DNA from: an uncultured Planctomycetaceae bacterium
GTDB taxonomy: Bacteria > Planctomycetota > Planctomycetia > Pirellulales > PNKZ01
NCBI GenBank assembly: GCA_964387325.1
Contig: CAYLYE010000002.1
Coordinates: 17,911-81,910, forward strand
Direction of reading: 5' to 3'
Length of the DNA stretch: 64,000 nucleotides
The notes beneath the pieces were generated by a model. The model searched no databases, was not told where the DNA came from, and saw nothing but the letters and a program-made list of their open reading frames with translations. Positions within the stretch are counted from its first letter, which is position 1. Every line of letters starts with the position of its first letter. Below, in pieces: positions 2,875 to 34,019 of this stretch. The position numbers were made by a program, and so were the translations under genes.

Positions 2875-3149
2875 TAGCTCGGCCGTTCAGGCTTTCGAGC
2901 CGCGTTTCGCTCTTCGAACAATCGCCATTCTTCCTGTGGGTTCCAGGGAGCTTGCAAGCCCACTTCCAGTTGCTCCAGCGCATGCTCGACGGATTCCATA
3001 TGCTCAGCATCGATTAACGGAATGTTTAATTCCGAGTCTTCGAGGGCATCAATCGCTGCCTCAAGCACTTTCTCGCGAGTGGGGAAAACTCCTTGCGCAA
3101 GCTTCTCTTGAATAAAGGCCTCGCAGCGAGGCGAAAGATTACTCGACAT
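2874..3149 (-). CDS. parD: type II antitoxin, ParD-like (RHH/COG3609-type)
   Basis: 91 aa. 'LSPRCEAFIQEKLAQGVFPTREKVLEAAIDAL' matches the ParD 'L.pelE.FI...V.sG.Y.s.SEVvR.alrlL' pattern. It sits immediately upstream of parE and is coupled to it. Confidence 0.75.
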   Translation of the reverse strand: MSSNLSPRCEAFIQEKLAQGVFPTREKVLEAAIDALEDSELNIPLIDAEHMESVEHALEQLEVGLQAPWNPQEEWRLFEERNAARKPERPS

Positions 3150-3246: not shown

Positions 3247-5187
3247 CTATCGCTCCACCGCATCGCGTCCCACACGCAGTGGCGCACCGCCGAAGGGGAT
3301 CGCGCCGGCATCGGGCGCGCCAGCGTCACCGTGAACCGTCACGGCCCATTCAGCCCCAGGGCTATAAACCACCCCAGCGTCGATCGCTGCGCTCCCTTGT
3401 TTCGGTCGGAACTCCGCATCCAACAACGGATCGCTGAGCCGCACCTGCGACAAACTTTGCGGCGGATAGTACGTCTGGCTCGCCGCATGCTCGGGCAACT
3501 TGCGGGCCTTCGTAAGCAAGGCTTCGAACTGTGTGGCCGTCGCCGTCGGAGCCCAATACACGTTCCCGTCACTGGCCCCGACGGGTAAATTCAGCGGCGG
3601 TAAATTGCCAGGATGAATAAACAAATTATTGAACACATAGCGCGGACGATCGATGTGACTGGCGCTACACACCGCCATCTCGGCCGAGCGTGACGTGGCG
3701 GCTGCCATGATCGCCGTGTTGTGTACGATCCGCATCGAAGGCCACGGCGGGCTACCGTGGTCCCCCATCACTTGGCCGGTCGAGAAGCGGGACTGCGGGT
3801 CGCGGCTTGAAGGTCGCCCGGTAGGAATCTTTTCCCGCAAGTCGATCACATTCTGCTCGATCCGGATTTGATCGGTGGTCGATTCCTTGCCGCCGAACGC
3901 AAGCGCCGTGAGACAGCGACGAATCCTATTCTGCCGCACCACGATCTTCGACGGCTGCGGGCGATACGACGGATACATCGGGCTCAGATAGATGCCGTCG
4001 TCCTGTGTGCCATCGATCAGATTGTGATGGAACGAACCGGTGACCCCGCCGATATACACGCCGTCGTGCGCGTCGCCAAAGTCGCAGTAGGCGATCTCCC
4101 AATGCTCATTCTGCGGATAGGCATAGACGTCGCATTCTTGATCAGCGTCGGGCACAAGCAGTGCGTGGGTGTTGAGCCGCGTAATGTCGCGCAGCGGCCG
4201 ACCAGGGTAGGCTCGCTTGCTCGTGTCTTGGCGATAGGTCCACGGCGACACGTTGCCAAACACTCCGCAGCGCCATAGTTTCAACCCCACCGCGCCGATC
4301 ATCCGCAGGCCGTTGCTCCCGCAGTACACCGTGACGTTGTCGAGCGTGATGTTCTCGGTCTGCTCAAACAGCACGGTGTTGTGTCCCGCCCCTCGAATAA
4401 CCACGTCTTGAATGCGTATGTGTTGCGCGCCGTCGAGGAACAGTGGGGTCGAATTTGCCGGGACGACCAACAGCGGCACGCGACGCGGATCGGTCACCCC
4501 TTGGTAGTTGGCCACCTCGGGAAGATGCGTATGGGCAAGCCTCGCGTGAATGCGTTGCGTCGCGGGGTCGTACCACAAGCCAGGGCCACAATACAGGCTC
4601 TTCACATCGCTCGTCTTGTCATCCGGTCGCTCGGGGTCCATCATCTCGTTCGTCGCCCGCAGGTCGCGGGCATGGTAGTACGTATTGAGCCCCAGGTACG
4701 AATCGGCAAACGACCCCAGCGCGTAACGCACGTTCGGGTATGCGCGTGTCGAGCGGTATTCGTCGGTCGATCCGCTCACGAGTTCCCAGGCCTGCTCAGA
4801 CTGCTCGGCAAACTCTTGCCAGCCACCGTCGAGGATAGCCAACTCACCAGGGGCCGAGCGAATCGTGATCGGCTTCTCGGCCGTGCCCACGAGCGCGCAG
4901 CGGACCTGCTCGTAGTACACGCCGCCGCGGAGCACGAGTGTCTCGCCGGCTTGCAGCTTGGTCAGAGCATGCGTGATCGTACGCCACGGTTTCGTCGTCG
5001 AGCCATCACTCTGATCGTCCCCCAGTTTCGCGTCGACGTAGCGTGCGGGGCCCGATTCGAGTGGCCGCTGCGTGGCTTGCGGCAAGGGGCGGAGCGGCGG
5101 ATGACTCATGAACCGCTCGGCTCCTTGGGCCAATACCCAATGAAACATCAAGCTAATGATGAACGTGACGTGAATTGCTCGACGCAT
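3247..5187 (-). CDS. secreted right-handed parallel beta-helix (pectate-lyase-fold) protein
   Basis: The ORF runs to 5289, but Met35 (ATG 5187-5185, preceded by GGAGAG) starts a signal peptide MRRAIHVTFIISLMFHWVLAQGA. 'GDDQSDGSTTKPWRTITHALTKLQAGETLVLRGGVYYE' is the typical N-cap of DUF1565/PbH1 beta-helix proteins. Repeated NxxxxG/beta-helix rungs follow. Confidence 0.75.
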   Translation of the reverse strand: MRRAIHVTFIISLMFHWVLAQGAERFMSHPPLRPLPQATQRPLESGPARYVDAKLGDDQSDGSTTKPWRTITHALTKLQAGETLVLRGGVYYEQVRCALVGTAEKPITIRSAPGELAILDGGWQEFAEQSEQAWELVSGSTDEYRSTRAYPNVRYALGSFADSYLGLNTYYHARDLRATNEMMDPERPDDKTSDVKSLYCGPGLWYDPATQRIHARLAHTHLPEVANYQGVTDPRRVPLLVVPANSTPLFLDGAQHIRIQDVVIRGAGHNTVLFEQTENITLDNVTVYCGSNGLRMIGAVGLKLWRCGVFGNVSPWTYRQDTSKRAYPGRPLRDITRLNTHALLVPDADQECDVYAYPQNEHWEIAYCDFGDAHDGVYIGGVTGSFHHNLIDGTQDDGIYLSPMYPSYRPQPSKIVVRQNRIRRCLTALAFGGKESTTDQIRIEQNVIDLREKIPTGRPSSRDPQSRFSTGQVMGDHGSPPWPSMRIVHNTAIMAAATSRSAEMAVCSASHIDRPRYVFNNLFIHPGNLPPLNLPVGASDGNVYWAPTATATQFEALLTKARKLPEHAASQTYYPPQSLSQVRLSDPLLDAEFRPKQGSAAIDAGVVYSPGAEWAVTVHGDAGAPDAGAIPFGGAPLRVGRDAVER

Positions 5188-5449: not shown

Positions 5450-8400
5450 ATGCCGGCCGCTCGAATCAACCTCAGCATCGTTGTCTTCGCGTTGTGTGTG
5501 GCATCGAGGCAACTCGATGCCGCCGAACCGAGCGCGTTGCAGTTTAATCGCGACATTCGGCCGATCCTTAGCGAAGCGTGCCTCCACTGTCACGGGCCGG
5601 ACCAAAGTCACCGCGAGGGAGAACTCCGGCTCGATGCGTCGGACGACGCGCTACGTCAACGTGACGGGCATCGGGTGATCGTCCCGGGCAAACCCGAGCT
5701 GAGTGAGTTGATTCGCCGGATCACGTCGTCCGATCCGGACACGCGAATGCCGCCCCCGAAGGCTGAGCGCCAACTCACTCCCAAGCAGATCGAAACCCTG
5801 AGGCAGTGGGTTGCTCAAGGCGCGCCATTCGAGTCGCACTGGTCATTCGTGCCTCCCAAAGCACCACCGCTTCCTGAGGTCATCGATCGCAATTGGGGCC
5901 GCGAATCGCTCGATCGCTTTGTACTGAACCGGCTCGAGCGCGCCGGGCTCAAGCCCAATCCCGAAGCCGATCGCTACACGCTCGCTCGACGCGCGGCGCT
6001 CGACTTGACCGGTCTGCCACCATCGCTCGCCGAGGTCGAGTCGTTTGTGAACGACAAGTCCCCGGAAGCCTTCGAGCAGTACGTCGACCGGCTCCTAGCC
6101 TCGCCCCGATTCGGCGAACGAATGGCAGTCCCCTGGCTCGACGCGGCCCGATACGCCGACACCAACGGATATCAGACCGATGGCCCGCGCTACATGTGGC
6201 GCTGGCGAGATTGGGTCATCGATGCGTTCAACCGGAACCTGCCCTTCGATCAATTCACGATCGAGCAGCTGGCGGGCGATTTATTGCCGCAGCCCACCCT
6301 CGATCAGCTCATTGCGACCGGGTTCAATCGCAATCATCGGGCGAATGCCGAGGGGGGGATCATCGCCGAGGAGTTCCGCATCGAGTACGTCGTCGACCGT
6401 GTCGATACCACCGCGACAGTCTGGCTCGGGCTCACACTCGGCTGCGCTCGCTGTCACGACCACAAGTACGACCCGATCAGTCAGCGAGAGTACTATCAGT
6501 TGTTTGCCTTTTTCAACAACGTGCCTGAGTTGGGCAAAGTGATCCGCGACAACAATTCACCCCCGATGGTACAAGCCCCGACGCCGGAGATTCGCGCGCG
6601 GATGACCGAGCTGCAAAAGCGTCTGCAAGAACTGGAGCAACAATCAGCCGCACAAATGCAAGCCTTCCTGGCCGGTCAATCACGCTGGGAAGCGACTCTC
6701 GGCGGTGTTCAAGACGAGCAGTGGTCGCCATCGGCCCATCAGATCGTGTACGCGCCGCTCGACGGTCAAGAAAAACTCGTCGAAGGCAAGGGGAACTTTG
6801 TCAGCGGCCGAATCGGCAAGGCGGTCAAGCTTGAGCACGGCGCGTGTGTCGATCTTGGCGACGTCGGCGATTTCAAACATACCGATCGCTTCAGCCTCGG
6901 TGCGTGGCTCTGGCTCGACTCGCCCGACGGCACGATCGTCTCGCGAATGGAAGACGACTTCAATCACAAAGGATACGACCTGCATGTCGAGCAGGGGAAA
7001 TTGCAATTCGAGCTCAGCGGTCGGCTGCTCGACGATGCCATTCGAATCGAGACGCTTGAGGCGTTGCCGCAGCGGCGTTGGTGTCATGTGCTGGCCACCT
7101 ATGACGGCCGCGAATTTGCTCGCGGCGTGACCCTGTACGTCGACGGGATACCCCGGCCGACGCGCGTCATTCTCGACACGCTTAGCAATGCCTCGAAGAA
7201 CACGCAGCCACTACGGGTCGGCACGCGCGGCGAAGGCCCCCAACTGCGTGGCCTCGTCGATGACGTGCGGGTCTTCGATCGCGATCTGGACGCGGCCACC
7301 GTGACAGCCATTGCCTGCGGCGACTCGATCTCGGCCGTGGCGAAAATCTCGCCCGACAAACGCACCCCAACTCAGCAACGCAAGCTGCGAGCCTATTTCA
7401 TCGCCCATCACGCGCCTGCGACACTGCAAACGCTTCTGCAAGCGACGGACGACGCTCGGGAGCACCTTCGCGCCTTCGACGCCAAAGTTCCCACGGTGAT
7501 GGTGATGCAAGAGATGAGCGAGCCGCGGACAACAAACGTGCTGCTGCGTGGTGAGTACGACAAGCCGGGCGAGCAGGTCACGGCCAATACTCCCGCGTCG
7601 CTCGGGGCGCTCTCGACGGATCGTCGACCTAACCGGCTCGATTTAGCCCGCTGGCTCGTGGATCGCAACAACCCTCTCACCGCGCGGGTGACTGTCAATC
7701 GGTTCTGGCAACATCTGTTCGGGCTCGGGTTGGTGAAAACGCCCGAAGACTTCGGCTCGCAAGGCGAACCTCCCGTGCAAGCCGAACTGCTCGATCATTT
7801 GGCCACGCAGTTCATCAACAGCGGCTGGGATGTGAAGCGGCTGCTGCGGTCGATCGTGCTCAGTTCGACGTATCGGCAGTCATCGCAGGCCTCGGCGGAG
7901 CAATTGACCCGCGATCCGGAAAATCGCCTGCTGGGTCGTGGTGCTCGGTTCCGTTTGTCGGCCGAAACGATCCGCGACCAGGCGCTCGCCGCGAGCGGTC
8001 TGCTCGACGCTCGCATTGGTGGACCGAGTGTCAAACCGTATCAGCCTGAGGGGCTCTGGGAAGAAGTCGCGGCGACCATTGTCCCGTACGTGCAAGATCA
8101 CGGGCCCGACTTATATCGGCGTGGCATGTACACGTTCTGGAAGCGGACGGTCGCGCCGCCATCGATGGTTGGCTTCGACGCGGCTGGCCGTGAGGCGTGT
8201 GTCGTGCGGACGGCGCGGACCAACACGCCGCTACAGGCTCTCAACTTGCTCAACGACGTGGCGTTTGTCGAAGCGACACGCGTACTCGCTCAACGCGCAC
8301 TTCAATCGTCGATGAGCATTGATGAGCGGATCAGGTTCATGTTTCGGGCGCTGCTCGTACGATCGCCGCGCGACGCCGAGCTACGCGTCTTGCATCGCGG

Positions 8401-8569
8401 GTTTGAGCAGCATCTCGCCCGGTATCGAGCAGCACCGGCCGAGGCGCAACGCCTGCTGAGCTTTGGTGAGTCGCCCCGCGATGAACGACTTGACATGCCC
8501 GAGCACGCCGCCTACACGACCATCGCCGGTGTGATTCTCAACCTCGACGAAACAATCACGAGGGAATAA
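5450..8569 (+). CDS. PSCyt1 (cytochrome-c-like) + DUF1549 + LamG + DUF1553 (PSD1) protein
   Basis: 1039 aa. Signal peptide, then '[16 protein letters not shown]' (CxxCH), 'WSFVPP', '[13 protein letters not shown]', '[18 protein letters not shown]' and '[12 protein letters not shown]'. A central concanavalin/LamG-like segment follows (GRIGKAVKL...LYVDG...VDDVRVF), then the C-terminal DUF1553 motifs '[28 protein letters not shown]'. Confidence 0.9.
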
Positions 8570-8571
8570 CG

Positions 8572-10032
8572 ATGTACGACGAAACGACCATCCGCCTGCT
8601 CCAGCGTCGCCAGTTCCTCACACAGAGCGGCACGAGCCTGGGGAGCATGGCGCTCGCATCGTTGTTGGCCGAGGACGGTTACGCGGCCGAGTCGAGTGAT
8701 GCCGCCGTCCACGGTGGCCTGTCGGGGTTGCCCCACTTTGCTCCCAAAGCCAAGCGAGTGATTTATCTGTTTCAGTCGGGCGCTCCGTCGCAGCTGGAGT
8801 TGTTCGATCCCAAGCCGGGGCTGGAAAAATATCGCGGGACCGATTTGCCCGACTCGATTCGCCAAGGTCAACGGCTCACCGGAATGACCTCGGCTCAAAA
8901 GTCGTTCCCGATCGCCCCCAGCATGTTCAAATTTCAGCAGCATGGTCAAAGTGGCACGTGGTTCAGCGAGCTGCTGCCGAATTTGGCCGGTCTCTCCGAC
9001 GAGATGTGTGTGATCAAAAGCCTGCACACCGAGGCGATCAATCACGACCCGGCGATCACGTTCATCACGACCGGTCATCAGCTGGCGGGCCGCCCGAGCA
9101 TCGGTTCCTGGGTCGGTTACGGTCTCGGCAGCGAGAACCATGACCTGCCGGCGTTCATCGCGATGGTGTCGCGCGGGACGGGCCGGCCAGCCGATCAACC
9201 GTTGTACGATCGACTGTGGGGGAGTGGCTTTCTCCCCTCACGACATCAAGGGGTGAAATTTCGTAGCGTGGGCGATCCCGTGCTGTATTTGTCGAATCCA
9301 CCAGGGGTCGATGCGTCAGGGCGTCGACAACAGCTCGACGACCTCGCGGAGCTGAATCGGCTCAAGCTCGATGCGCAGGGAGATCCTGAGATCGCGACCC
9401 GCATTGCGCAGTACGAACTCGCGTATCGCATGCAGAGCAGCGTGCCGGAATTGATCGACATTCGCAACGAACCGCAACACGTGCTCGACATGTACGGGTC
9501 GGAGGTAAACCGTCCGGGGACGTTTGCCGCCAACTGCTTGCTCGCCCGACGGCTCGCTGAGCGCGGCGTGCGATTTATTCAACTCTTTCACATGGGTTGG
9601 GATCAGCACACGCGACTGCCCGATCAAATTCCACGGCAGTGCAGCGACATCGATCGACCGTGTGCCGCTTTGCTACGCGATCTGCGTCAGCGGGGTCTGC
9701 TTGACGACACGCTGGTGGTCTGGGGAGGCGAGTTTGGCCGGACCGTGTATTGCCAGTCGACGTTGACCCCGACCGACTACGGTCGCGATCACCATCCCCG
9801 TTGTTACACGATCTGGATGGCCGGCGGCGGCATCCGTCGCGGTCTGAGCTACGGTGCCACGGACGACTACAGTTACAACATCACGGCCGACCCCGTCCAC
9901 GTGCATGACCTGAATGCGACCATCTTGCACTGCCTGGGGGTCGACCACAAACGACTGACGTTCAAGTTCCAGGGCCGCCACTTCCGGTTGACCGACGTTC
10001 ATGGCGAACGTGTGAAACCGATCCTGGCTTAA
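8572..10032 (+). CDS. DUF1501 protein (sulfatase/alkaline-phosphatase-like), Tat signal
   Basis: 486 aa. Twin-arginine N-terminus '[25 protein letters not shown]'. DUF1501 hallmarks '[22 protein letters not shown]', '[10 protein letters not shown]', 'GRDHHP', 'TIWMAGGGI'. The start is 2 nt after the upstream stop. Confidence 0.9.
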
Positions 10033-10072: not shown

Positions 10073-11587
10073 CTAGGCGCGATCCCAATAGCTATAGTTT
10101 GCCTTGAGCTGCGTCATCGTGAGTGTCACCAAGCCAGGTGCCGAGCCGTTGTTGATGCCCCAAGGGTTGAACAGCGTCACAGTTTGGGCATTGCTGTCGA
10201 CACTCGCGACAACGTACTGGTGATTGCCGACGACCGACTTCAAGCTGGGGGTCGAGGTCGAGGCGAAGCCGATCATTTTTCCGGCCGCGAAAGCGTTCGC
10301 CACCGAAGCAAAGGTGATCGAAGAAGTCGACGCGGTGACCGAGGTCACGTTGGCAATCTGCTTAACAGCCTGCGAGAAGTACCCTCCGGCGACCGCCTGG
10401 TATGAGTTCACGCCATTACCGGGCAGGCCTTGGCGGAGCCAGCCAGCCTCGTTGATCTGGCAGTAAGCTTTCTCAGCCATCGCGACCCAAAGCACGTTGC
10501 TTGAGCTGCTGGCCGTTTGTCCCATATTGGCAAAGACCAACCGACCGCTCGAGACGGGCAGCATCGAGTCGACCGTCACGTAGTCGGCCTTACCGTTATT
10601 ATAGAACCGCACGGTGTAGGTGCCGTCGCCATTGACGGTGAACATGCTTTTGACGGCGTTGGGATTTTTGAGGGCCGCTTCGGCCAGCGTGGCGACGAAG
10701 TAGCAATCTCCCACGGCGCCTTGTTTCACATCGGTGTACACCGGACCATTGCTGGCAAACAATTTGCCCGAGGCATTCGCGTAAGCGAAGGTCGTGGAGT
10801 TGTACTTGGCCAGCGGATGATCGGTTCCCAGGAACCACTTGCTGACCAGCTTGTCGAGTTGTGTTGTGGTCGAAGTGCTAGTCAAGTTGCCGAGCGCGGT
10901 CCCTTGATAGCTCTTATTCGCGGCGTTCCCTTGCACAACGTCCTTGGTCAACACTTTGACGCTGTCGTAAGATCCAAACAGACTGTCAGTCGCGGCGATT
11001 TTAGAGAGGTCGGAATATTCATTCGCTGACATTGTTTTATCAGCGCTCACTTGGCGGAATATGCCCATCATTTCATTGCGATTGATCGCGCTATCGGCAT
11101 TGGCAGCACGCGCGAGGCTACGAATGGCCGCGTCTTTGATGTTGCGATCGTACCAATCGAGTGCCGAACCACCAATGGACGTCACACCGGTTGCCGAGAC
11201 CGCCAGTGCACCGTTACCGCTGAGATACGTATAACTTCCATCGAGTAGCTTGACGTTGTCGAGCCCCGCGCCGGCGTTGAGCGTGATCGACTTGCCGAAT
11301 TTCTGCCCGCTTGTCACCAGCCCATTGAGGCTGACCGCATCGGTGCCCGTGCCGCTATTGATGACGACCGAATTGATGCGCGAGGTGAAGAAGCCGGAGT
11401 TGACGCCATCGATCGAGACCGTGCCGCCTGATTGGCGTAACACGATGCTGTCATCACCGCTGGTGCCGGTGATCGTCAACACTCCCGTACCGCTGAGACT
11501 GGCCACTAGCCCGGCGAGCATCGATCGATCTTCGAGCTTCTCAACGCGAAAACGGAGCCGATTGGCAGGAATCTCTTTGGTTCGCAT
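10073..11587 (-). CDS. secreted calpain-like cysteine protease (peptidase C2 core) with planctomycete 'LEDR' N-terminal motif
   Basis: 504 aa. N-terminus 'RLRFRVEKLEDRSMLAG'. GDD/Gly-rich repeats. C-terminal half carries calpain triad contexts: 'QGAVGDCYFVATLAEAAL' (Cys295), 'GNHQYVV' (His456), 'LFNPWG' (Asn474). Confidence 0.8.
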   Translation of the reverse strand: MRTKEIPANRLRFRVEKLEDRSMLAGLVASLSGTGVLTITGTSGDDSIVLRQSGGTVSIDGVNSGFFTSRINSVVINSGTGTDAVSLNGLVTSGQKFGKSITLNAGAGLDNVKLLDGSYTYLSGNGALAVSATGVTSIGGSALDWYDRNIKDAAIRSLARAANADSAINRNEMMGIFRQVSADKTMSANEYSDLSKIAATDSLFGSYDSVKVLTKDVVQGNAANKSYQGTALGNLTSTSTTTQLDKLVSKWFLGTDHPLAKYNSTTFAYANASGKLFASNGPVYTDVKQGAVGDCYFVATLAEAALKNPNAVKSMFTVNGDGTYTVRFYNNGKADYVTVDSMLPVSSGRLVFANMGQTASSSSNVLWVAMAEKAYCQINEAGWLRQGLPGNGVNSYQAVAGGYFSQAVKQIANVTSVTASTSSITFASVANAFAAGKMIGFASTSTPSLKSVVGNHQYVVASVDSNAQTVTLFNPWGINNGSAPGLVTLTMTQLKANYSYWDRA

Positions 11588-14718: not shown

Positions 14719-16404
14719 TCAATCACTTGCGGCTGAGCTTTTGCGAAGCGCTCGACCTGCCCTCGCTCCGGTGTGCTCGCCTCGGTCGAGCACAAGTTGG
14801 CCATTGACGAGCACATACTCGATTCCTTCGCTGTACTGAAACGGTTCGGTGTATGTGGCCCGATCGATCACCTTGTCCGGAGCGAAGACGGTGACGTCGG
14901 CAACCATTCCCGCACGCAGGAGACCTCGATCGGTGAGACCAATTTTCTGGGCGTTGAGCGACGTCATCTTGCGAATCGCATCTTCGAGCGAGAGCAACCC
15001 GCGCTCACGCACGTACTCACCAAGCACCTTGGGAAAGGTACCGAAGTTGCGTGGATGAGGGTTGCCGCGCCGCAGTGCTCCCGTGATGGAGTACGCTGAG
15101 CCGTCGCTGCCGACCGAGCACCAGGGCTGCGCGAGCGCGCGGTTCATGTCCTCTTCGGTATGATGCGCGAAGACCGTACTCACCGAGCCATGCTCCTCGA
15201 TGAGCAATGCGAAGAGTTCATCGAGCGGGTCGCTCGACGGCTTTCCGGCTGTACGAAGCGCCATGACCCGGTCCATCGTGAGCCCTCGGTAGCGGTTCTC
15301 GGCCGCCACGAGCATCCGACTCCAATCACGCCCCACGGCCGTGTAGTGGTTGTACCAACCGTCGATGCCGCCGGTAATGTCCTGCTTCAGACGCGCTCGC
15401 AGGGCGGGATTTTTGAGCCTCTCGAGCATTGCGGCCGTCCCCCCTTCATGCGCCCAGGGGGGAATAATGCTCGACAGATTGTTGTTGCCGCGTGTGTAAG
15501 GATAGACGTTGGCCTGAACGTTCACGCCCCGCTGGCGAGCCGACTCAATCAGAGCAACGATCTCATTCATCCGCCCCCAACATTGCTCGTCGGCAATCTT
15601 CAGATGGATGATGTCGACCGGCAGTCGGGCTCGTTCGCCAATCGCGATCGCCTCGCGGACCGCATCGAAGACCCCCGTTCCTTCGGTCCGAATGTGCGTA
15701 GAGTAGATACCACCTCGCTTGGCGACCACGCGACAAAATCGGACCAGGTCGTCGGTCGTGGCCAGCGAGCCGGGTGGCATCATCAAATAGGTCGAGAGCC
15801 CCAAGGCTCCGTCTCGCATCGCCTCGTCGACGAATTGCTCCATCTGCACGAACTGGGGCTCGGTCGGACGCTCGAACGAATTGCCCATCACGGACTGCCA
15901 GATATTATTGATGCCAACATACGAGGCAACATTGATCGCAATGCCGGCCCGTTCAAGCGATTCAAAGTACGCGCCGAGCGTGGGCCAGCGTGCTTTGGCG
16001 CTCGAGTCGCTCACGCCTTGCGGTCGCGATCCTTGATTAGGTGCTGCCGAATCACCCTCGCCCAGCACGTCGGTCGTCACCCCTTGGCGTATCTTACTCT
16101 GCGCCGCTCCGTCTTCGAGCAGCAGATAGTCGCTGTGCGAATGGATATCGATGAAGCCGGGGGCTACAATCAGACCGCGAGCGTCGATCGTGCGGCGGGC
16201 TTCGCCTTTAGGCAACTGTCCCACGGCAACGATGCGTCCCGCGCGAATCGCCACGTCGCCGTCATACCACGGGTTGCCCGTACCGTCGACGATCCGGCCA
16301 CCCACAATACGCACATCGTCGACCGTCTGCGCGGCAACAAACGACGAAAGCAGTAACAGCACTGAAAGGACACCCAACATACGTGTAACGCGTGAGCCAT
16401 GCAT
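14719..16404 (-). CDS. N-acyl-D-amino-acid deacylase (D-aminoacylase) family amidohydrolase, secreted
   Basis: 561 aa. Signal peptide 'MLGVLSVLLLLSSFVAAQ'. 'GGRIVDGTGNPWYDGDVAIRAGRIVAVG', the metal-binding 'GFIDIHSHSD' and 'SDGSA' are typical of the D-aminoacylase subgroup. Confidence 0.85.
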   Translation of the reverse strand: MHGSRVTRMLGVLSVLLLLSSFVAAQTVDDVRIVGGRIVDGTGNPWYDGDVAIRAGRIVAVGQLPKGEARRTIDARGLIVAPGFIDIHSHSDYLLLEDGAAQSKIRQGVTTDVLGEGDSAAPNQGSRPQGVSDSSAKARWPTLGAYFESLERAGIAINVASYVGINNIWQSVMGNSFERPTEPQFVQMEQFVDEAMRDGALGLSTYLMMPPGSLATTDDLVRFCRVVAKRGGIYSTHIRTEGTGVFDAVREAIAIGERARLPVDIIHLKIADEQCWGRMNEIVALIESARQRGVNVQANVYPYTRGNNNLSSIIPPWAHEGGTAAMLERLKNPALRARLKQDITGGIDGWYNHYTAVGRDWSRMLVAAENRYRGLTMDRVMALRTAGKPSSDPLDELFALLIEEHGSVSTVFAHHTEEDMNRALAQPWCSVGSDGSAYSITGALRRGNPHPRNFGTFPKVLGEYVRERGLLSLEDAIRKMTSLNAQKIGLTDRGLLRAGMVADVTVFAPDKVIDRATYTEPFQYSEGIEYVLVNGQLVLDRGEHTGARAGRALRKSSAASD

Positions 16405-16971: not shown

Positions 16972-17121
16972 TGCGCGCTCCTCCGGCGTTTCTTTAGCCG
17001 GCATGGAACGAAGTTGTTGGTTACAAGCGAAACTCGCTGCGCACATTGAGCTGCGCTGACGATGTTTGTGCTGTCGATCGATCATTTTTGTCACGAATTA
17101 ACCTATCGAGGAGTGTGCTTT

Positions 17122-17529
17122 ATGAACCTGAACTTTTTTGCTCGTCGGACATGGTTGCGAAGCGTATTAGGCGTGGCGGGAGCGACCATGTTGCTCGGCC
17201 GAACCATGCAAGCAGCCGAAGGCAAGGTCTCCAACGGCTGTGTCAAAACGTGTCGTGAGTGTGCAGCTACTTGCAAGAACTGCGACATGTGCTGTCGTGC
17301 GGACAACCCCGTCTGCGCCAAGCAGTGCGAGGCCTGTCATCACATGTGCCTGGCCTGTGCCGCTGCGTGCGAGCAGGGCTTGCCCATCGCGTATGACACG
17401 TGCGTGATGTGCGAGAAGATGTGCATAGCTTGCGCGGAACGCTGCGAGAAGTCGGGCAAGGATTGTTGCAAGATGTGCGCCGAGACGTGCCGCAAATGTG
17501 CGGCGGCGTGCAAGGCGGCCCGCAGCTAA
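17122..17529 (+). CDS. four-helix-bundle Cys-rich copper-binding protein (DUF326 / Csp-like), Tat signal
   Basis: The ORF starts at 17062, but ATG 17122 is preceded by GAGGAG (17108-17113). It opens a twin-arginine signal 'MNLNFFARRTWLRSVLGVAGATMLLGRTMQA'. The mature ~105 aa contain 24 Cys in the repeated CxxxC/CxxC spacing typical of DUF326 (e.g. CRECAATCKNC, CEACHHMCLACAAAC, CEKMCIACAERC, CAETCRKCAAAC). Confidence 0.8.
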   Translation: MNLNFFARRTWLRSVLGVAGATMLLGRTMQAAEGKVSNGCVKTCRECAATCKNCDMCCRADNPVCAKQCEACHHMCLACAAACEQGLPIAYDTCVMCEKMCIACAERCEKSGKDCCKMCAETCRKCAAACKAARS

Positions 17530-17549: not shown

Positions 17550-17590
17550 GACCGGCGCTGTTCGTGGAGAGTAGCGCCGGTCGTGTTTGT
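17550..17590 (+). terminator. intrinsic-terminator-like hairpin after the Csp-like gene
   Basis: Perfect 10-bp inverted repeat GACCGGCGCT (17550-17559) / AGCGCCGGTC (17573-17582) with a 13-nt loop, followed by GTGTTTGT. It begins 21 nt after the stop codon. Confidence 0.5.
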
Positions 17591-17792
17591 CGGGAAGAGC
17601 GTAATAACGCAAGAGGAGTTTTTTCCGCCTGAAAAAAACTTCGCAAAACTGACGTTGTCTGTTTTGCGCGTCGTTTGCTAAGTTCCCTCCGGTGGTCGGA
17701 TGGATTCGATCGCTTGGCGAGGGGACCCAGTGCTGAATGGATTCGGCGCTCCCCCTTTTCTCTTTTCCCTGGCGGGGTAGTCAAGTTGCCGG

Positions 17793-17890
17793 GGGTTATC
17801 GAGGTTCGGGTAATTAAGTTTACAGGACGACCAGCGGGAGTCTGTACATACCGGCCTCGCGATGCTCGGCCTAATAAGCCGATTACCTGA
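17793..17890 (+). repeat. copy 1 of a 98-nt conserved intergenic element (candidate structured RNA, sense = + strand)
   Basis: 81/98 identical to the reverse complement of 33874-33971 in an ungapped hand alignment. Predicted helices: P1 17806-17814 with 17882-17890; P2 17825-17828 with 17840-17843, enclosing a GA/GA internal loop and CC-AGC-GG. Confidence 0.7.
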
Positions 17891-17893
17891 CGA

Positions 17894-19030
17894 TCAAAGG
17901 CCCATCACCTCGGCCAGTTTTACGAGGCGGCTTTTTTCGCCCATCGATTTGACCCCCGCGTGAATAATGGCGGTCACTTCGAGAATCTCCTGATGGGGCA
18001 CCGGCTCGACACCCGTCATCACCATCCGCCGAAAGGTGTCCGCCTGATTGAGCATCTGGTAGTGATGCCCATACCAGTAATGATCTTCAATCGCCGGTGA
18101 GTAGGTGTACACCTTCTTGGCAAAGAAGGCGGTCGTCGAAGAGTACCGCGGGCCAGCATCGGGGCGACCGCACCACACTTCGGCCGGCGGCTTGTCGGGA
18201 TACGTAATGAGCAGATGACAGGTATTACCATACTCGTACATGTTGACGGCCTCGACCCCCGCACCGCACAGGGTCATCACCATCCACACCGGATGCTGGC
18301 CATAAATGACCCAGCGGTCGTAGTCATGCGCGCCGGCCTGCGAGGCGAGCACATATTGCAGTGGCCCATACTCGCCCGAGGCTTTCATACGCAACGTTTC
18401 TTCGGTTCCCCATTGATAGCGATAGATGCTCGACGACATCAGAGGCGCTTTGTGCTGACGAGCAAATTCGAGAATCTTGCGTGTGCCGGCCACCGACGCG
18501 CCGATCGGCTTGTCGCAGAACGTGGGGAGCCCGCGCTCCAGGCCCGGAGCACAAAGATCGAAATGATCTTCGCCATAACCGCTGGCGTCGCCCACCCACA
18601 CGGCATCGACCTCTTTAACCATTTGCTCCAGAGATGTGCAGACCTGCACGCCCGGAAACGCCTCGCAGAAAATCTTGGCAATTTCCGGATCTTGTTCGTA
18701 GTAATGTGAAATCACCGTATTGCCAAACGGCCAGCGGTTGAACGTCATCTGCGGGTTGCGTAGGTAGTTGTGAAACAACTGCACCGTGCCGGGATCTTTG
18801 TACTTCTTGATCGCATCGAGATTGCACTCGGGATGAAAATACTGAGCAAAGTGCCACGTGTGACCATTGAGCCGCTGCGCCTTACCTTGAATGCGAGCCG
18901 AGACCACGCCAATCTTCAAAACCTTGTCTGGCTTGGTCGCCGTTTCGGCAGCAGGAGCATTCGGGGCAAGAAATTGCGAACCGGCCGCAAGGGCCGCCGC
19001 AGAGAGTAACTGTCGACGCTGTGGATTCAT
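17894..19030 (-). CDS. Gfo/Idh/MocA-family oxidoreductase, Tat signal
   Basis: The ORF runs to 19069 (TTG). Met14 (ATG 19030-19028) opens 'MNPQRRQLLSAAALAAGSQFLAPNAPAAE' (twin-arginine). 'LKIGVVS' lies at the Rossmann start. Length and overall pattern match periplasmic Gfo/Idh/MocA-like proteins. Confidence 0.75.
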   Translation of the reverse strand: MNPQRRQLLSAAALAAGSQFLAPNAPAAETATKPDKVLKIGVVSARIQGKAQRLNGHTWHFAQYFHPECNLDAIKKYKDPGTVQLFHNYLRNPQMTFNRWPFGNTVISHYYEQDPEIAKIFCEAFPGVQVCTSLEQMVKEVDAVWVGDASGYGEDHFDLCAPGLERGLPTFCDKPIGASVAGTRKILEFARQHKAPLMSSSIYRYQWGTEETLRMKASGEYGPLQYVLASQAGAHDYDRWVIYGQHPVWMVMTLCGAGVEAVNMYEYGNTCHLLITYPDKPPAEVWCGRPDAGPRYSSTTAFFAKKVYTYSPAIEDHYWYGHHYQMLNQADTFRRMVMTGVEPVPHQEILEVTAIIHAGVKSMGEKSRLVKLAEVMGL

Positions 19031-19204
19031 GGGATAAAATCTGCGCGAAAGGGTGAAGTTCAAATGCAAGCATCTAGCAGTCTAACTGCGACCCGCGAGA
19101 GTGACAACAAAATCGATCCATGTGACGCACCGGACTCCGCATGTAGAATTCAACGTCTTGATTCGTAGTCACTCCCTCACCCGCTCGACTCTGGTTGGTT
19201 CACT

Positions 19205-20365: not shown

Positions 20366-22390
20366 ATGGTGTGTTTGTCGATCAGGTGCCACATGCGATG
20401 CATGGTGTCGTTCCGTGTCCTGGGGATAGCCGTAGCTACACTGGGACTGCTTGTTGACCTCGCCTCAGCAGCCTCGCCGCAGAGCAAAAGCCTGCCTTGG
20501 TCGTTCAAGCCGATTGCGAATCCCAAACCGCCACAGGTCAGCCAGGCGAATTGGGCCCGAGATGATCTCGATCGTTTCGTGCTCGCGACACTCGAACAGC
20601 AGAAGCTTGTCCCCAACCGCGATGCTGATCGCTACGTGCTAATGCGTCGCGTGACACTCGATCTTACCGGCTTGCCTCCGAGCGAGGATCAGATCGCCGC
20701 GTTCCTCGCCGATCGATCGAATGACGATCAGGCGCTGGCTAAAGTTGTCGATCGACTCCTGACTTCACCGCGCTTTGGCGAACGATGGGCGCGTCACTGG
20801 CTCGATGTGGTGCATTACGCCGACAGTGCCGGCAGGACTTTTAATCCACCGCTGACGTATGCTTGGCGCTACCGCGACTACGTGATCGACGCCTTCAATC
20901 AAGACAAGCCTTACGATCGCTTCGTGCTCGAACAACTCAGCGGCGATTTGCTGCCCGCCAAGACTCTTGCCGAACGCCGCGAGAATCTCGTCGCCACGGG
21001 CATGCTCGCACTCACGGCTTTTGATCTGCAAGCGCTCGACTCGCGGCAGTATGAGATGGACTGCATCGACGATCAGATCGACGTGCTCTCGCGGACATTT
21101 TTGGGGCTGACGATCGCCTGTGCCCGTTGTCACGACCACAAGTACGACCCGGTAAGCACACGCGATTATTACGCCCTGGCGGGCATATTCTACAGCTCAC
21201 GGTCCCGGCCCGGGGTCTCGTATCGCGGCTCGGGCAATGGCTACGTCGATCATGAAGAGTTGATCACGCTCCCCATTGCGCTGGGGACCAAAGCGGTCGC
21301 TGCGAAGCTCGTGCCGGGGGTCCATTCGATGAACGACTACAACGATGAGTGGCGGACAGGCAAACGCAACATCCGTTATACGACCGATCCGAATTTGTGC
21401 ATCGGGCTCGCCGACGACGAGATCAACGACTGTGCGATACGAGTGAAGGGGGACCCGCACGATCATGGCGAGACACCGTCACGCGGCGACCTACGTATTC
21501 CCGCGCTGCCGCGCATGACCCGACCTGGCAGTCAATCCAGCGGACGACTGGAACTGGCCAAATGGATCACGTCGCGCGATCATCCGCTCACGGCGCGGGT
21601 CATAACCAATCGCGTCTGGCAACACCTGTTTGGGCGTGGTCTCGTATCGACGAGTGACGACTTTGGCGTGATGAGCGAGCCCCCATCGCATCCTGAACTG
21701 CTCGACTTTTTATCGCGGCGGTTGATGGACCAGGGGTGGTCGCTCAAAAAGCTGATTCGCTCGATCGTGCTAAGCCGGACCTATCGACTCAGCAGCGATA
21801 CCGTCGGCACGACGGCCAAGGACACGGATGCCGACAATCGTTACTACTGGCGCGCCAATCTACGTCGTCTCGAGTTCGAACCGCTCCGTGACAGCCTATT
21901 GTTCGTTGCCGGGCGGTTGTCGTTCGATCGGCCCGAGGGGGTGCAAGTGACGGGCATTGGTGGCAAGAGCAACAAGACCTCGGTAGCCAGCGTGCTCGAT
22001 CTCGACGACTCGTGCCGTACCGTCTATTTGCCCGTGATCCGCTCGCGACTGCCCGACTCGTATGGCACGTTCGACTTTCCTGACCCGTGCCAGATCGTGG
22101 GTCAACGTGAGGTGACGACCGTCGCGCCGCAGGCCTTGTTCTTCATGAACAATCGGCTCGTGTCGAACTGTGCGGCCGAGGTGGTCGACGAACTGGCCAA
22201 GTCGGCCAAGCCGAACGACGCCGCGCGGGTCAACTCGTTGTATCTACGATTGCTGGGGCGACCTGCTACGGCAGACGAGCTGCGCGACGTGGCTGGACTA
22301 TTGCCGAGCCTAGCTTCGTCGCCAGCCGAAAATTGGACGACGCTCGTACAAGCGTTGTTGTGCAGCGCCCCGTTTCGTTATGTGCGATAA
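20366..22390 (+). CDS. DUF1549 (PSCyt2) + DUF1553 (PSD1) protein, no N-terminal CxxCH domain
   Basis: 674 aa; the likely true start is Met13 at 20402, giving the signal MVSFRVLGIAVATLGLLVDLASA. Motifs 'WSFKP', '[13 protein letters not shown]', '[18 protein letters not shown]', '[12 protein letters not shown]', 'HPLTARVITNRVWQHLFGRGLV.TSDDFG'. Confidence 0.9.
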   Translation: MVCLSIRCHMRCMVSFRVLGIAVATLGLLVDLASAASPQSKSLPWSFKPIANPKPPQVSQANWARDDLDRFVLATLEQQKLVPNRDADRYVLMRRVTLDLTGLPPSEDQIAAFLADRSNDDQALAKVVDRLLTSPRFGERWARHWLDVVHYADSAGRTFNPPLTYAWRYRDYVIDAFNQDKPYDRFVLEQLSGDLLPAKTLAERRENLVATGMLALTAFDLQALDSRQYEMDCIDDQIDVLSRTFLGLTIACARCHDHKYDPVSTRDYYALAGIFYSSRSRPGVSYRGSGNGYVDHEELITLPIALGTKAVAAKLVPGVHSMNDYNDEWRTGKRNIRYTTDPNLCIGLADDEINDCAIRVKGDPHDHGETPSRGDLRIPALPRMTRPGSQSSGRLELAKWITSRDHPLTARVITNRVWQHLFGRGLVSTSDDFGVMSEPPSHPELLDFLSRRLMDQGWSLKKLIRSIVLSRTYRLSSDTVGTTAKDTDADNRYYWRANLRRLEFEPLRDSLLFVAGRLSFDRPEGVQVTGIGGKSNKTSVASVLDLDDSCRTVYLPVIRSRLPDSYGTFDFPDPCQIVGQREVTTVAPQALFFMNNRLVSNCAAEVVDELAKSAKPNDAARVNSLYLRLLGRPATADELRDVAGLLPSLASSPAENWTTLVQALLCSAPFRYVR

Positions 22391-22403
22391 CTTCGTGTGA
22401 AAG

Positions 22404-23798
22404 ATGAACTGGACAACCTTCATGCCTCACCATCGATCGTTGCCTCGCAGCGACTCGCGTCGCCGCTTGCTACAGCAAACGGCCACCGGATTTGGTTGGT
22501 TGGCGCTGCAGGCGCTCGCCACCGAGTCGGCTCGCGCAGCCGAACCGCGCTACCGCTCGCCACTGGCTCCCAAGGAGCCCCACTATCAGCCCCGGGCCAA
22601 GCGCGTGATCTTCCTGTTCATGGCCGGAGGACCATCACACCTGGACACGTTTGATTGGAAGCCCGAACTGGCCCGCGTGGGGCGTGGAGGGGGCAAAAGT
22701 CAATTGCTCGCACCGGTCGTCGACTTCGCCCCGGCCGGCAAGAGCGGCATTCACATGGCCACGATCTTTCCACACTTGTCCCGGCATGCCGATGATCTAT
22801 GCTTGCTCAACGGCGTTACGACCGGCAACCCGGGCCATCAACAAGCGACCGTCGCACTCCACACCGGTAGCGAGAATTTTGTCCGCCCCTCGCTCGGTGC
22901 CTGGGTCACCTACGGCCTGGGGACCGAGGCCCAGGATCTGCCCGGCTTCGTTACGATCGATCCGATCAACGATCTCGGCGGGGCAATGAACTACGGCTCG
23001 GCGTTTTTGCCCGCCAGCTACCAAGGCACGCGGCTCGGAGCAGGGCAGGGGAGTGTCCCCAACATTGCCAACCGTCGCCTCGACAGCGCCGAGCAGCGCC
23101 GGCAACTCGACTTCGTGCAGCGCACCAATCGCCGACTGCTCGACCAGTTGCCCGACAACCCCGAGCTCGAAGGACTCATCGAGTCGTACGAGCTGGCCTT
23201 CAAGATGCAAACCTCGGTCCCTGACACGCTCAGTTTCGACAACGAGCCCGACTCGATTCGCGAACTCTACGGTCTCGACGACGGCGAAACTCGCAACTTC
23301 GCCTCACAATGCCTGATGGCGCGACGGTTAGCCGAGAAAGGGGTGCGATTCATTCAGCTCACCAGCCCCGGTTGGGACCACCATAACAACCTCCGCGAGC
23401 ACATCACGCGCGGCGCCACCTCGATCGACAAACCAATCGCCGGGCTGATTGCCGACCTCAAACAGCGTGACATGCTTAAAGACACGCTGATCGTCTGGGG
23501 AGGCGAGTTCGGCCGCACGGCGCGTGACGACAAAGGAGACGGCAACGGTCGCGGACATGCCAACAAGGGGTTCTCAATGTGGATGGCCGGCGGCGGTGTG
23601 AAAGGGGGCCTGCGCTACGGCAAGACCGACGAGCTGGGCGAGGTCGCCGTCGAGGGAACGATGGATACGCATGATGTCCACGCCACGATTTTATATCTGC
23701 TTGGCCTCGACCACGAAGGGCTCACCTATCGCTACGCCGGCCGCGACTTCCGGTTGACCGACACGAAAGGGAAAGTCCATCGCGGGATTTTGAGTTAA
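22404..23798 (+). CDS. DUF1501 protein, Tat signal
   Basis: 464 aa. 'SDSRRRLLQQTATGFGWLALQALA' (twin-arginine), 'KRVIFLFMAGGPSHLDTFDWKP', '[10 protein letters not shown]', 'GRGHA', 'MWMAGGGV'. It starts 13 nt after the upstream gene. Confidence 0.9.
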   Translation: MNWTTFMPHHRSLPRSDSRRRLLQQTATGFGWLALQALATESARAAEPRYRSPLAPKEPHYQPRAKRVIFLFMAGGPSHLDTFDWKPELARVGRGGGKSQLLAPVVDFAPAGKSGIHMATIFPHLSRHADDLCLLNGVTTGNPGHQQATVALHTGSENFVRPSLGAWVTYGLGTEAQDLPGFVTIDPINDLGGAMNYGSAFLPASYQGTRLGAGQGSVPNIANRRLDSAEQRRQLDFVQRTNRRLLDQLPDNPELEGLIESYELAFKMQTSVPDTLSFDNEPDSIRELYGLDDGETRNFASQCLMARRLAEKGVRFIQLTSPGWDHHNNLREHITRGATSIDKPIAGLIADLKQRDMLKDTLIVWGGEFGRTARDDKGDGNGRGHANKGFSMWMAGGGVKGGLRYGKTDELGEVAVEGTMDTHDVHATILYLLGLDHEGLTYRYAGRDFRLTDTKGKVHRGILS

Positions 23799-32595: not shown

Positions 32596-33837
32596 TCACG
32601 AACCAAACACCGGCTGGATTTGGTTCAGCCGCTCGATGGTCTGGCGCATGAGCGCGTCTTCAGCGGCTTCGTCGGCCGCTTCATAGGTGACCGAGAATCG
32701 CAAGAACGAGCCGGCATCGTCCCAGGGAACGGTGACGATCGAATGCTCGTTGATCAGGTACTGACTACACTCCTCGGCGTTGGCAAACTTGCGGCCGTCG
32801 CTCGCTAAGCCCTTGGGGCTCGGCGTGTACAAAAAGTAGGTGCCGCCAGGGACTTGGCAATCGAAGCCGCAACGCTTCAGCGCATCGACCAACTTTCGCA
32901 AACGGCGTTCGTACTTGACGCGCACACGCTGTGGAATCGTGTCATCGTCGAGCGCAACGGCAGCCGCCTTCTGAATCGCCATGAACTGCCCCGAGTCGCT
33001 GTTGTCTTTCACGTCGGCCAGGGCCTGCACAATGCGCTCGTGACCGCACACAAATCCGATGCGCCAGCCGATCATGTGCCAGCCTTTGCTCATCGAATGA
33101 ATTTCGATGCCCACATCTTTAGCACCTGGCACTTGCAAGAACGACAGTGGTGGCTGAGCAAAGCTGAGCATCGAGTGCGCCGCGTCTTGCACAACCACGA
33201 TCTTGTTTTTCAGCGCGAAGTCGATTACTCGCTTGTAGAAATCGACCGTGGCGAGTTTGCCCGTCGGGCTGTTCGGATAGTTGATCACGAGCAGCTTGGC
33301 CTTATCGCACACGTCGGCCGGGATCGACTCCAGATCGGGAAAGAAATCGTTCTGCTTAAGCAGCGGCAGACGATGCACCGTACCACCGTAATACTTCGTA
33401 TGGGTGCCGGCTACGGGGTACCCTGGCACGGTCATCAACGTGATGTCGCCCGGGTTAATGAACGCCGCGGGGATCATGGCCAGAGCGGTCTTGGAACCGA
33501 TGCAGTGGTTGACTTCCTTGACCGGGTCGAGCGCCACGCCAAATGTTCGCTGCATGAACCGCGCGGCGGCCTCTTTATACGCGGCGATACCATTGTCGGC
33601 ATAGCCACGATTGGTGGGCAAATTGATCTCGCATTGCATGGCGGCCCGAACGTTCTCGGGAGCCATCTCGTCGTTCTCGCCGATTCCGAAGTCGATGAGC
33701 GACCGCTCGGGATGCTCGGCCAAGGCCTTGCGTTTGGCGCGCTTGATCTTCTCGAACTTATAGATCTCGGTGCCTTTACCGTAGTTGATGCCGCCGATCC
33801 GCTCGGCGAATAGCTGCTGAAAGTAAGGGTCGCTCAT
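32596..33837 (-). CDS. class I/II PLP-dependent aminotransferase, probable LL-diaminopimelate aminotransferase (DapL-like)
   Basis: 413 aa. 'IDFGIGENDE', 'RGYADNGI', 'NYPNSPTG', 'VVQDAAHS' and 'HSMSKGWHMIGWRIG' (PLP-lysine context SxSK). The DapL assignment is from overall resemblance only. Confidence 0.8.
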   Translation of the reverse strand: MSDPYFQQLFAERIGGINYGKGTEIYKFEKIKRAKRKALAEHPERSLIDFGIGENDEMAPENVRAAMQCEINLPTNRGYADNGIAAYKEAAARFMQRTFGVALDPVKEVNHCIGSKTALAMIPAAFINPGDITLMTVPGYPVAGTHTKYYGGTVHRLPLLKQNDFFPDLESIPADVCDKAKLLVINYPNSPTGKLATVDFYKRVIDFALKNKIVVVQDAAHSMLSFAQPPLSFLQVPGAKDVGIEIHSMSKGWHMIGWRIGFVCGHERIVQALADVKDNSDSGQFMAIQKAAAVALDDDTIPQRVRVKYERRLRKLVDALKRCGFDCQVPGGTYFLYTPSPKGLASDGRKFANAEECSQYLINEHSIVTVPWDDAGSFLRFSVTYEAADEAAEDALMRQTIERLNQIQPVFGS

Positions 33838-33873
33838 GGCTCTCGATTCCGCGATATGGCGAGTTATAGATAC

Positions 33874-33971
33874 TCAGGTAATGCACTCAGGAGGCCGAGC
33901 AACGCAAGGCCGGTATTTTCGGACTCCCGATGGTCGTCCTATTAACTTAATTACCTGAACCTCAATAAACC
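33874..33971 (-). repeat. copy 2 of the 98-nt conserved intergenic element (sense = - strand)
   Basis: The reverse complement is 81/98 identical to 17793-17890. P1 (UCAGGUAAU/AUUACCUGA) and P2 (GGAC/GUCC) are fully Watson-Crick here. The element ends 36 nt upstream of the aminotransferase ATG (33837). Confidence 0.7.
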
Positions 33972-34019
33972 GCTAAGTTACCCTGCGACCGACAGGCAAA
34001 CAAGGGACTATTCGGTGGC

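Follow-up and report, generated by a model that had tools for sequence, protein, structure and literature searches.

Bacterial MITEs are A+T-rich elements of <200 bp with TIRs, 5'-TA-3' termini and a TSD, which form long mismatched stem-loops and ORF fusions (PMC2229807, PMC3733652). RUP, an element of 107 bp with a TA target, is thought to be mobilised in trans by IS630-Spn1 (PMC2229807). Transcripts of Correia/NEMIS elements are long mismatched hairpins that serve as RNase III substrates in Neisseria, and ERIC/IRU and YPAL elements sit in transcribed intergenic regions (PMC2229807). REP elements form two superfamilies, which are defined by a GTAG or CGTC tag at one end of a 20-40 bp palindrome (PMC3733652). 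The small mobile repeats of Planctomycetes have hardly been catalogued, and a survey of MITEs (PMC11602168) does not mention this phylum.

Here we examined a repeated element, E1, in the window, by which we mean the whole 64,000-nt stretch of DNA analysed. An earlier sequence-only reading had taken its two copies for an undescribed structured RNA. The observation is real and the class assigned to it is wrong: E1 is a mobile repeat, not a dedicated structured-RNA gene or riboswitch. We consider it likely that E1 represents a MITE-like family of the Correia/RUP/ERIC type and that the two window copies are independent insertions; as far as we searched, the family is undescribed.

RUP resembles E1 in its similar size, short imperfect TIRs, TA ends with TA targets (probable ones in E1), lack of coding sequence, long stem-loop and many dispersed intergenic copies, and both elements insert into other mobile elements (for RUP, PMC2229807). 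The two share no sequence similarity, RUP belongs to a firmicute host and E1 to a planctomycete, and no IS630-type element with matching TIRs was found for E1. Correia/NEMIS elements (Neisseria, ~107 and 155 bp) have TIRs and TA termini as E1 does, with a TSD in Correia and, by reconstruction, probably in E1. The open frames of the 107-bp Correia form become fused to adjacent ORFs (PMC2229807); E1 has one open frame per strand, donates stop codons and is read through by an ORF in one copy. Unlike Correia, in which TIRs of 24-26 bp are the conserved part, E1 is best conserved in its interior core. ERIC/IRU (127 bp, enterobacteria) and YPAL are, like E1, whole-length imperfect palindromes with TA termini that occur in either orientation (PMC2229807). 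They have no sequence similarity to E1, which is present or absent between sister species. ERIC copies in E. coli are few, old and largely immobile. REPINs are likewise multi-copy, intergenic hairpins of ~100 nt built from two inverted short palindromes, but E1 lacks a GTAG or CGTC tag as well as a RAYT in its vicinity, and it has AT-rich TIR arms and an apparent TA duplication.

Two copies of E1 in the window

A repeat search of the 64-kb window returned a 103-nt inverted repeat with arms at 17793-17895 and 33869-33971 that were 82% complementary. This pair was the strongest by far, the runner-up being 32 nt long. The 20-mer GAGGTTCRGGTAATTAAGTT, common to both copies, was found nowhere else in the window at three or fewer mismatches, and 100 shuffles gave an expectation of 0 chance matches. 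These figures bear out the earlier claim that the similarity exceeds chance, and the gapless alignment of 17793-17890 (+) with the reverse complement of 33874-33971 was reproduced. The repeat had been given as 98 nt; the pair stands at that length, and the element itself is slightly longer, running from TA to TA at 17797-17899 and 33865-33967. The weaker similarity that had been noted for a further ~35 nt on one side belongs to the flank outside the insertion, not to the element: at copy 2, the sister genome described below has this stretch too, at its empty site.

The window also holds paralogous pairs of PSCyt2/PSD1 (DUF1549/DUF1553) and DUF1501 genes at 5450-10032 and 20366-23798. Such gene pairs are typical of planctomycetes, and their paralogy accounts for the direct repeats D1 and D3 of the window.

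E1 consists of a 99-nt core with a TA at each end, 103 nt in all. Its parts are listed here, with P1 (the "closing helix") and P2 denoting the two helices that the sequence-only reading had proposed; the TIRs were placed with a pairing diagram and the conserved cores with the alignment and the same kind of diagram.

17797-17899, + strand: E1 copy 1, with TA at 17797-17798, core at 17799-17897 and AG at 17898-17899 (model score 103 bits)
17799-17814, + strand: 5' TIR of copy 1, TCGAGGTTCGGGTAAT, which includes the 5' strand of P1
17824-17872, + strand: conserved core of copy 1, AGGACGACC…GCTCGGCCT
17882-17897, + strand: 3' TIR of copy 1, ATTACCTGACGATCAA, which includes the 3' strand of P1
33865-33967, - strand: E1 copy 2, with TA at 33967-33966, core at 33965-33867 and TA at 33866-33865 (106 bits)
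33950-33965, - strand: 5' TIR of copy 2, TTGAGGTTCAGGTAAT
33892-33940, - strand: conserved core of copy 2
33867-33882, - strand: 3' TIR of copy 2, ATTACCTGAGTATCTA

We read the AG at the end of copy 1 as a mutated TA; four of six full-length copies have TA at both ends. The TIRs (TTGAGGTTCAGGTAAT / ATTATCTGAGGATCAA) are 16 nt long and imperfect, with ~12-13 of 16 positions matching. Their pairing is made up of contiguous blocks of 4 and 9 positions around a 3x3 mismatch, and if contiguous pairs alone are counted they fall below the 15-30 bp of the strict MITE definition. The sequence-only reading had seen neither a TIR pair nor a target duplication. In this it was mistaken, for its closing helix is the TIR and both ends are flanked by TA. 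Inside the TIRs, the two halves of the conserved core pair together apart from four single mismatches, from which no copy in either genome departs. Each half also makes up a small local hairpin of its own, P2 being the one in the first half. The consensus is self-complementary at 74 of its 103 positions and every copy scores significantly on its own opposite strand, which indicates that E1 is quasi-palindromic. The flank consensus is itself loosely palindromic (GGn-TA…TA-nCC). With a GC content of 51% in copy 1 and 46% in copy 2, compared to 59.6% for the window, E1 is richer in A+T than its host.

We agree with the earlier view that E1 is non-coding. Variable columns were spread 10/7/10 over the codon positions, each strand has one open frame, the copies lack start codons, and 5.8 billion proteins, searched with a profile of the two open frames, yielded no homologue. 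The comparison with Rfam that had been proposed matched no family: the whole window gave no match at gathering score, and relaxing the threshold to E up to 10 around either copy gave chance-level matches only.

E1 is dispersed in a sister genome

Species-representative genomes were searched with a 22-base pattern taken from the conserved core. All 8 exact matches fell in one MAG, GCA_964652155.1 (CAZZBK01, "uncultured Planctomycetaceae"). This MAG (Pirellulales) is the nearest relative on record, with ~82% nucleotide identity over collinear genes. Five of the eight copies lay at contig ends, which is where copies of a repeat longer than the assembler's k-mer are expected, and E1 fits that behaviour. 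The two window copies and the eight MAG copies aligned without gaps, with sharp boundaries common to all ten (GGnTATTGAGG … GATCAATAnCC). A sequence-only model built from this ten-copy alignment found two further interrupted or degenerate copies (L008 5901-5988 and L009 14940-15026; L numbers denote loci) as well as a fragment, termed fragment C (L009 13973-14021). At least 10 copies plus the fragment were counted in the ~150 kb read from the sister MAG. A "B-type subfamily" was dropped, as its members turned out to be E1 copies interrupted by a second element.

Outside these two genomes, a scan of metagenomes with a strict core pattern gave 0 matches. A looser pattern matched 11 metagenome loci, of which a single one was homologous: a diverged copy on an unrelated contig (L027 3478-3556, 39 bits) in which the core is kept and the arms have diverged. 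The other 10 were chance matches inside GC-rich coding sequence. Viral contigs gave 0 matches, and BLAST against plasmids in distant mode found none.

No copy is as near to another copy as it is to the consensus. Copy 1 has 14 differences from the consensus and copy 2 has 11, compared to 21 between them; the MAG copies have 4-8 differences from the consensus and 9-13 among themselves. Such star-like divergence around a consensus is the pattern of a transposable-element family. Judged by their divergence, copies 1 and 2 belong to the older part of the family. Any asymmetry in arm conservation among the MAG copies is unusable owing to ascertainment bias: 22 columns of the 5' half were set by the search pattern itself.

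The orthologous sites are empty in the sister genome

The genes that border the two window copies are the following; for the MAG copies, the surrounding genes were predicted with a codon-usage model.

17062-17529, + strand: gene for a Cys-rich protein of 155 aa, with repeated CxxxC-type spacing and a likely signal peptide
17894-19069, - strand: GFO/Idh/MocA oxidoreductase gene (PF01408 in homologues; context), protein 92% identical to that of the MAG
32596-33837, - strand: LL-diaminopimelate aminotransferase (DapL) gene, protein 94% identical to MAG protein P0001, start 27 nt downstream of copy 2
34020-35078, - strand: App1-like phosphatase gene (PF09949 in the orthologue), stop 52 nt upstream of copy 2

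Around copy 2, L009 7612-9971 corresponds to window 36325-33967 and L009 9981-13926 to window 33857-29919. The App1-DapL spacer (loci L009/L010) measures ~110 nt in the window vs ~10 nt in the MAG. Around copy 1, L012 9997-11140 corresponds to window 19034-17888 and L012 11168-11808 to window 17761-17110, and the spacer between the GFO/Idh/MocA and Cys-rich genes measures 126 nt in the window vs 27 nt in the MAG. Both window sites are therefore filled where the orthologous sites, with collinear flanks, are empty, as an insertion leaves them. The E1 model found no copy on L012-L016, nor on L011, a more distant DapL locus. We rejected the idea that MAG site 1 retains a remnant of E1, as the sole link was a 7-mer in common, which is compatible with chance. 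An inversion of the 16-kb segment between the inverted copies was likewise rejected, since the sister genome has the same gene adjacencies beside each copy. Had the MAG instead lost both copies by precise deletion, with no insertion in the window lineage, two independent events would be needed, which is the less parsimonious account. The absence of E1 at the orthologous GFO and dapL sites indicates that neither copy is a conserved regulator of its neighbour.

Removal of the 99-nt core and one TA from site 1 restores …GTG ATG GGC TAA (…EVMG, then stop). The MAG reads …GTG ATG AGC TGA (…EVMS, then stop), its stop lying at exactly the position of the reconstructed one; when the element is removed with both TAs, the ORF runs on. 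The same operation at site 2 yields GCGGTTTAACTCGC, compared to GCGGTTTCCCTCGC in the MAG, of equal length and with 2 substitutions. The empty sites of the MAG read TG and TC, not TA, and copy 1 now reads TA…AG, so that we infer, rather than observe, insertion into a TA with its duplication. Duplication of a TA target is the mode of IS630/Tc1-mariner-type transposases.

E1 supplies stop codons to neighbouring genes

The GFO/Idh/MocA gene ends …GTG ATG GGC CTT TGA (…EVMGL, then stop), and both the CTT codon and the TGA are supplied by the end of copy 1, whose 3' TIR carries the stop (17894-17896) on the minus strand. As this stop lies inside copy 1, the minus strand must be transcribed there. 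In 5 of 13 copies a neighbouring gene stops at the TGA of the terminal TATTGA (copy 1, twice in L008, and once each in L009 and L004), and the copy is antisense to the gene in four of these five. In L027, an ORF reads through E1. Several copies are located in spacers that are convergent or 3', and the genes beside the copies are unrelated to one another. The orientation of E1 relative to its neighbours was ~5 forward to 6 reverse. This balance, together with the minus-strand transcription required at copy 1, speaks against the earlier proposal that one strand of the element is transcribed, which at copy 1 was to be the plus strand.

No promoter-like or terminator-like signal was detected at either window copy, and no T-run follows the E1 hairpin. 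A different hairpin lies upstream of copy 1 on the plus strand: 10 bp, GC-rich, at 17551-17581, ~20 nt past the stop of the Cys-rich gene. Its orthologue (L012 ~11335-11375) keeps the hairpin with two compensatory pair changes (GACCGGCGCT/AGCGCCGGTC vs GACCGGCACC/GGTGCCGGTC), and Rfam returned only a chance-level mir-3122 match for it. This hairpin is probably the terminator of the Cys-rich gene, although no T-run follows it, and plus-strand transcription is probably halted by it ~200 nt before copy 1. The Cys-rich gene itself stands beside the GFO/Idh/MocA gene in the sister MAG too (as a 136-aa call), and its 155-aa product had no Pfam match at E up to 1e-5.

The hairpin varies by loss of pairing

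P1 and P2 can be drawn in both window copies, as had been claimed: across the ten-copy alignment 96% of cells were paired, compared to 32-45% when the partners were slid. Covariation, which the sequence-only reading had named as one check on its fold, was not seen. No pair of P1 or P2 had changed on both sides, and 500 of 500 shuffles scored at least as high as the observed alignment. In one copy or another, pairing is lost at four positions of P1 and at one of P2, with unpaired cells at 13-97, 17-93, 19-91 and 38-44. The full hairpin behaved in the same way, with 12 of 39 pairs varying solely by loss of pairing and 0 compensatory pairs. The low diversity among copies limits the power of both tests. 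RNAalifold gave yet another fold, likewise without covariation.

It had further been argued that substitutions giving G-U pairs on one strand and A-C mismatches on the other mark the transcribed strand. Over its whole hairpin, copy 1 has 4 G-U and 4 A-C/C-A, and both strands fold significantly, which leaves this argument weak. Young copies carry 3 G-U vs 0-1 A-C/C-A, all of them inherited. The forward strand of a young copy folds at -41.7 kcal/mol and the reverse at -32.1 kcal/mol; the ~10 kcal/mol advantage of the forward strand in young copies reflects the 3 G-U pairs. Both strands of the young copy folded better than shuffled sequences (z = -4.9 and -3.3). The folds of the two window copies were unremarkable by the same comparison (z = -0.9 and -1.8).

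What kind of element E1 is

E1 is multi-copy and dispersed, has sharp boundaries, and sits in both orientations in spacers and at gene ends, where it donates stop codons. It is small and non-coding, within the range of about 70-300 bp used for membership in such families, and it has the descriptive properties of MITEs: size, lack of coding sequence, TIRs, TA termini, A+T-richness, a stem-loop, intergenic location, ORF fusion and proximity to mobile elements. We picture E1 as a small non-autonomous element with a 99-bp core, imperfect 16-bp TIRs, a quasi-palindromic interior and no coding capacity. It would insert at a TA dinucleotide, which would be duplicated as with IS630/Tc1-mariner-type transposases, perhaps in the loosely palindromic context GGn-TA-nCC. 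The transposase would presumably come from a gene at another place in the genome and work on the TIRs in trans; the 44 predicted genes of the window contain no transposase or integrase domain, and the window has no cognate IS with matching ends. When co-transcribed with a neighbour, either strand of E1 could fold as a mismatched hairpin of ~45 bp and might then serve as a putative 3'-end stabiliser or RNase III-type processing site. Any such effect would be a by-product of insertion and not the reason for the sequence's existence, and an RNA role of E1, such as that of an mRNA 3'-end hairpin, would be secondary if there is any.

One feature is atypical of MITEs. The interior core, not the termini, is best conserved, and this extends to the distant L027 copy, which leaves room for a function of the core. 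The core, invariant and mismatched asymmetrically, with its two GGNC…GNCC mini-hairpins and conserved AAGUUAA stretch, might be an RNA- or protein-recognition module on a MITE chassis, or might be recognised by a mobilisation mechanism of a new kind; we hold this to be decidedly unlikely. If true, the spread of the module would have brought Pirellulales genes with no relation to each other under shared post-transcriptional control, in many cases at the stop codon. A related and, in our estimate, unlikely explanation is that E1 spread as a MITE does and is now a domesticated module under selection, acting as a bidirectional mRNA 3'-end hairpin or protein-binding site. The stop codons abutted or overlapped by 5 of 13 copies, and the several copies in convergent or 3' spacers, would suit such a module, as would the report that MITE hairpins modulate the stability of adjacent mRNAs (PMC2229807). 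The absence of a T-run after the hairpin and of any detected terminator-like site does not suit it, and the orthologous genes of the sister genome manage without E1. The older window copies, with 21 differences between them and arm pairs lost, are decaying as expected without selection. The four core mismatches that are identical everywhere and the core kept in L027 would suit the module too, but a single master copy as recent ancestor would also account for the uniform mismatches.

The original proposal, in which E1 would be the gene or cis-element of an undescribed structured RNA (an sRNA or a regulator in the dapL 5'-UTR) read from the forward strand with P1 and P2, retains its non-coding character, its lack of an Rfam family, so that the RNA, if one exists, would be undescribed, and its possible stable hairpin; the strand-specific RNA gene is what fails. 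Copy 2 and the copies in L001 and L003 do lie forward, 30-100 nt upstream of a start codon, the forward strand of young copies folds better, and across genomes conservation is highest in the core. By eye, the P2 stem of fragment C has also changed from GGAC/GUCC to GGGC/GCUC, with one compensatory change; since each arm is itself palindromic, this change fits the long hairpin equally well. Against these points, ten copies show no covariation, copies stand in near-equal orientations to host genes with four antisense over a gene's stop codon, and both window copies, including that in the dapL leader, are missing at the nearest relative's orthologous sites. Neither copy has promoter-like or terminator-like signals, and in copy 1 the G-U pairs equal the A-C mismatches in number. 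Among the findings that would refute its RNA, the sequence-only reading had itself named IS or MITE ends and further copies whose substitutions break P1/P2, and both were made here: MITE-like TIRs with TA flanks, and such substitutions in further copies. We regard a structured RNA as very improbable. A REP/REPIN, that is, two inverted REP hairpins mobilised by a RAYT (IS200/IS605-like Y1) without target duplication, we regard as highly improbable. The core does comprise two short imperfect inverted palindromes, GGACGACCAGCGGGAGTCC and GGCCTCGCGTTGCTCGGCC, the whole forms one long hairpin, and REP families have been reported in Planctomycetes (PMC3733652). Neither palindrome is flanked by a GTAG or CGTC tag in the consensus, however, AT-rich TIR arms with TA at both ends lie outside them, and the window has no RAYT-like gene. 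The length-exact reconstruction of a TA duplication at both empty sites is not expected of Y1 transposition.

Consequences for annotation and genome comparison

Taking E1 as a MITE-like family strikes out a riboswitch or sRNA lead upstream of dapL as false, and it adds to the record of Planctomycetes a MITE family that appears to be undescribed, with a second family, E2, nested in it. E1 fragments the short-read assemblies of these organisms and rewrites the 3' ends of genes through the stop codons it donates. It also serves as a presence/absence marker between closely related Pirellulales. The finding is of use for annotation, assembly and strain comparison in Pirellulales.

A second element and the surroundings of the MAG copies

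E2 is an unrelated palindromic element of ~98 nt with 18-nt TIRs (AGCGTCTAGCAAAATGGC … GCCATTTTGTTAGACGCT), located at L008 5989-6086 (-) and absent from the window. It sits inside an E1 copy and has TAAG on both sides, a candidate 4-bp target duplication. A partial E2 at L009 15028-15059 (-) adjoins another E1 remnant. The nesting of E2 in E1 suggests that small insertion elements are, or recently were, active in this lineage.

In several E1 copies, a motif resembling TGTCGCAA precedes the 5' TA by 14-16 nt (L001 ~4670-4690, L008 ~6105-6125, L002 ~3075-3095, window 17775-17796 and 33968-33995). This flank of copy 2 is found in the sister's empty site too and is thus not part of the insertion; the motif may represent a target-site preference.

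Collinearity between the window and the MAG stops at L009 13926 (window ~29919), right beside fragment C and ~1 kb from an interrupted E1 copy, which places repeats at a rearrangement breakpoint. Nearby, a short tandem repeat (GGCAAGCCGACTGGATCTCCCTCG) lies in a 201-aa ORF without Pfam matches (L009 ~14800-14900, L010 ~14866-14976). A 111-nt difference between L009 and L010 was considered as a polymorphic insertion and rejected, as it consists of 111 N inside the tandem repeat in the NCBI copy of the contig; the run of N that replaces the repeat accounts for the length difference between the two assemblies.
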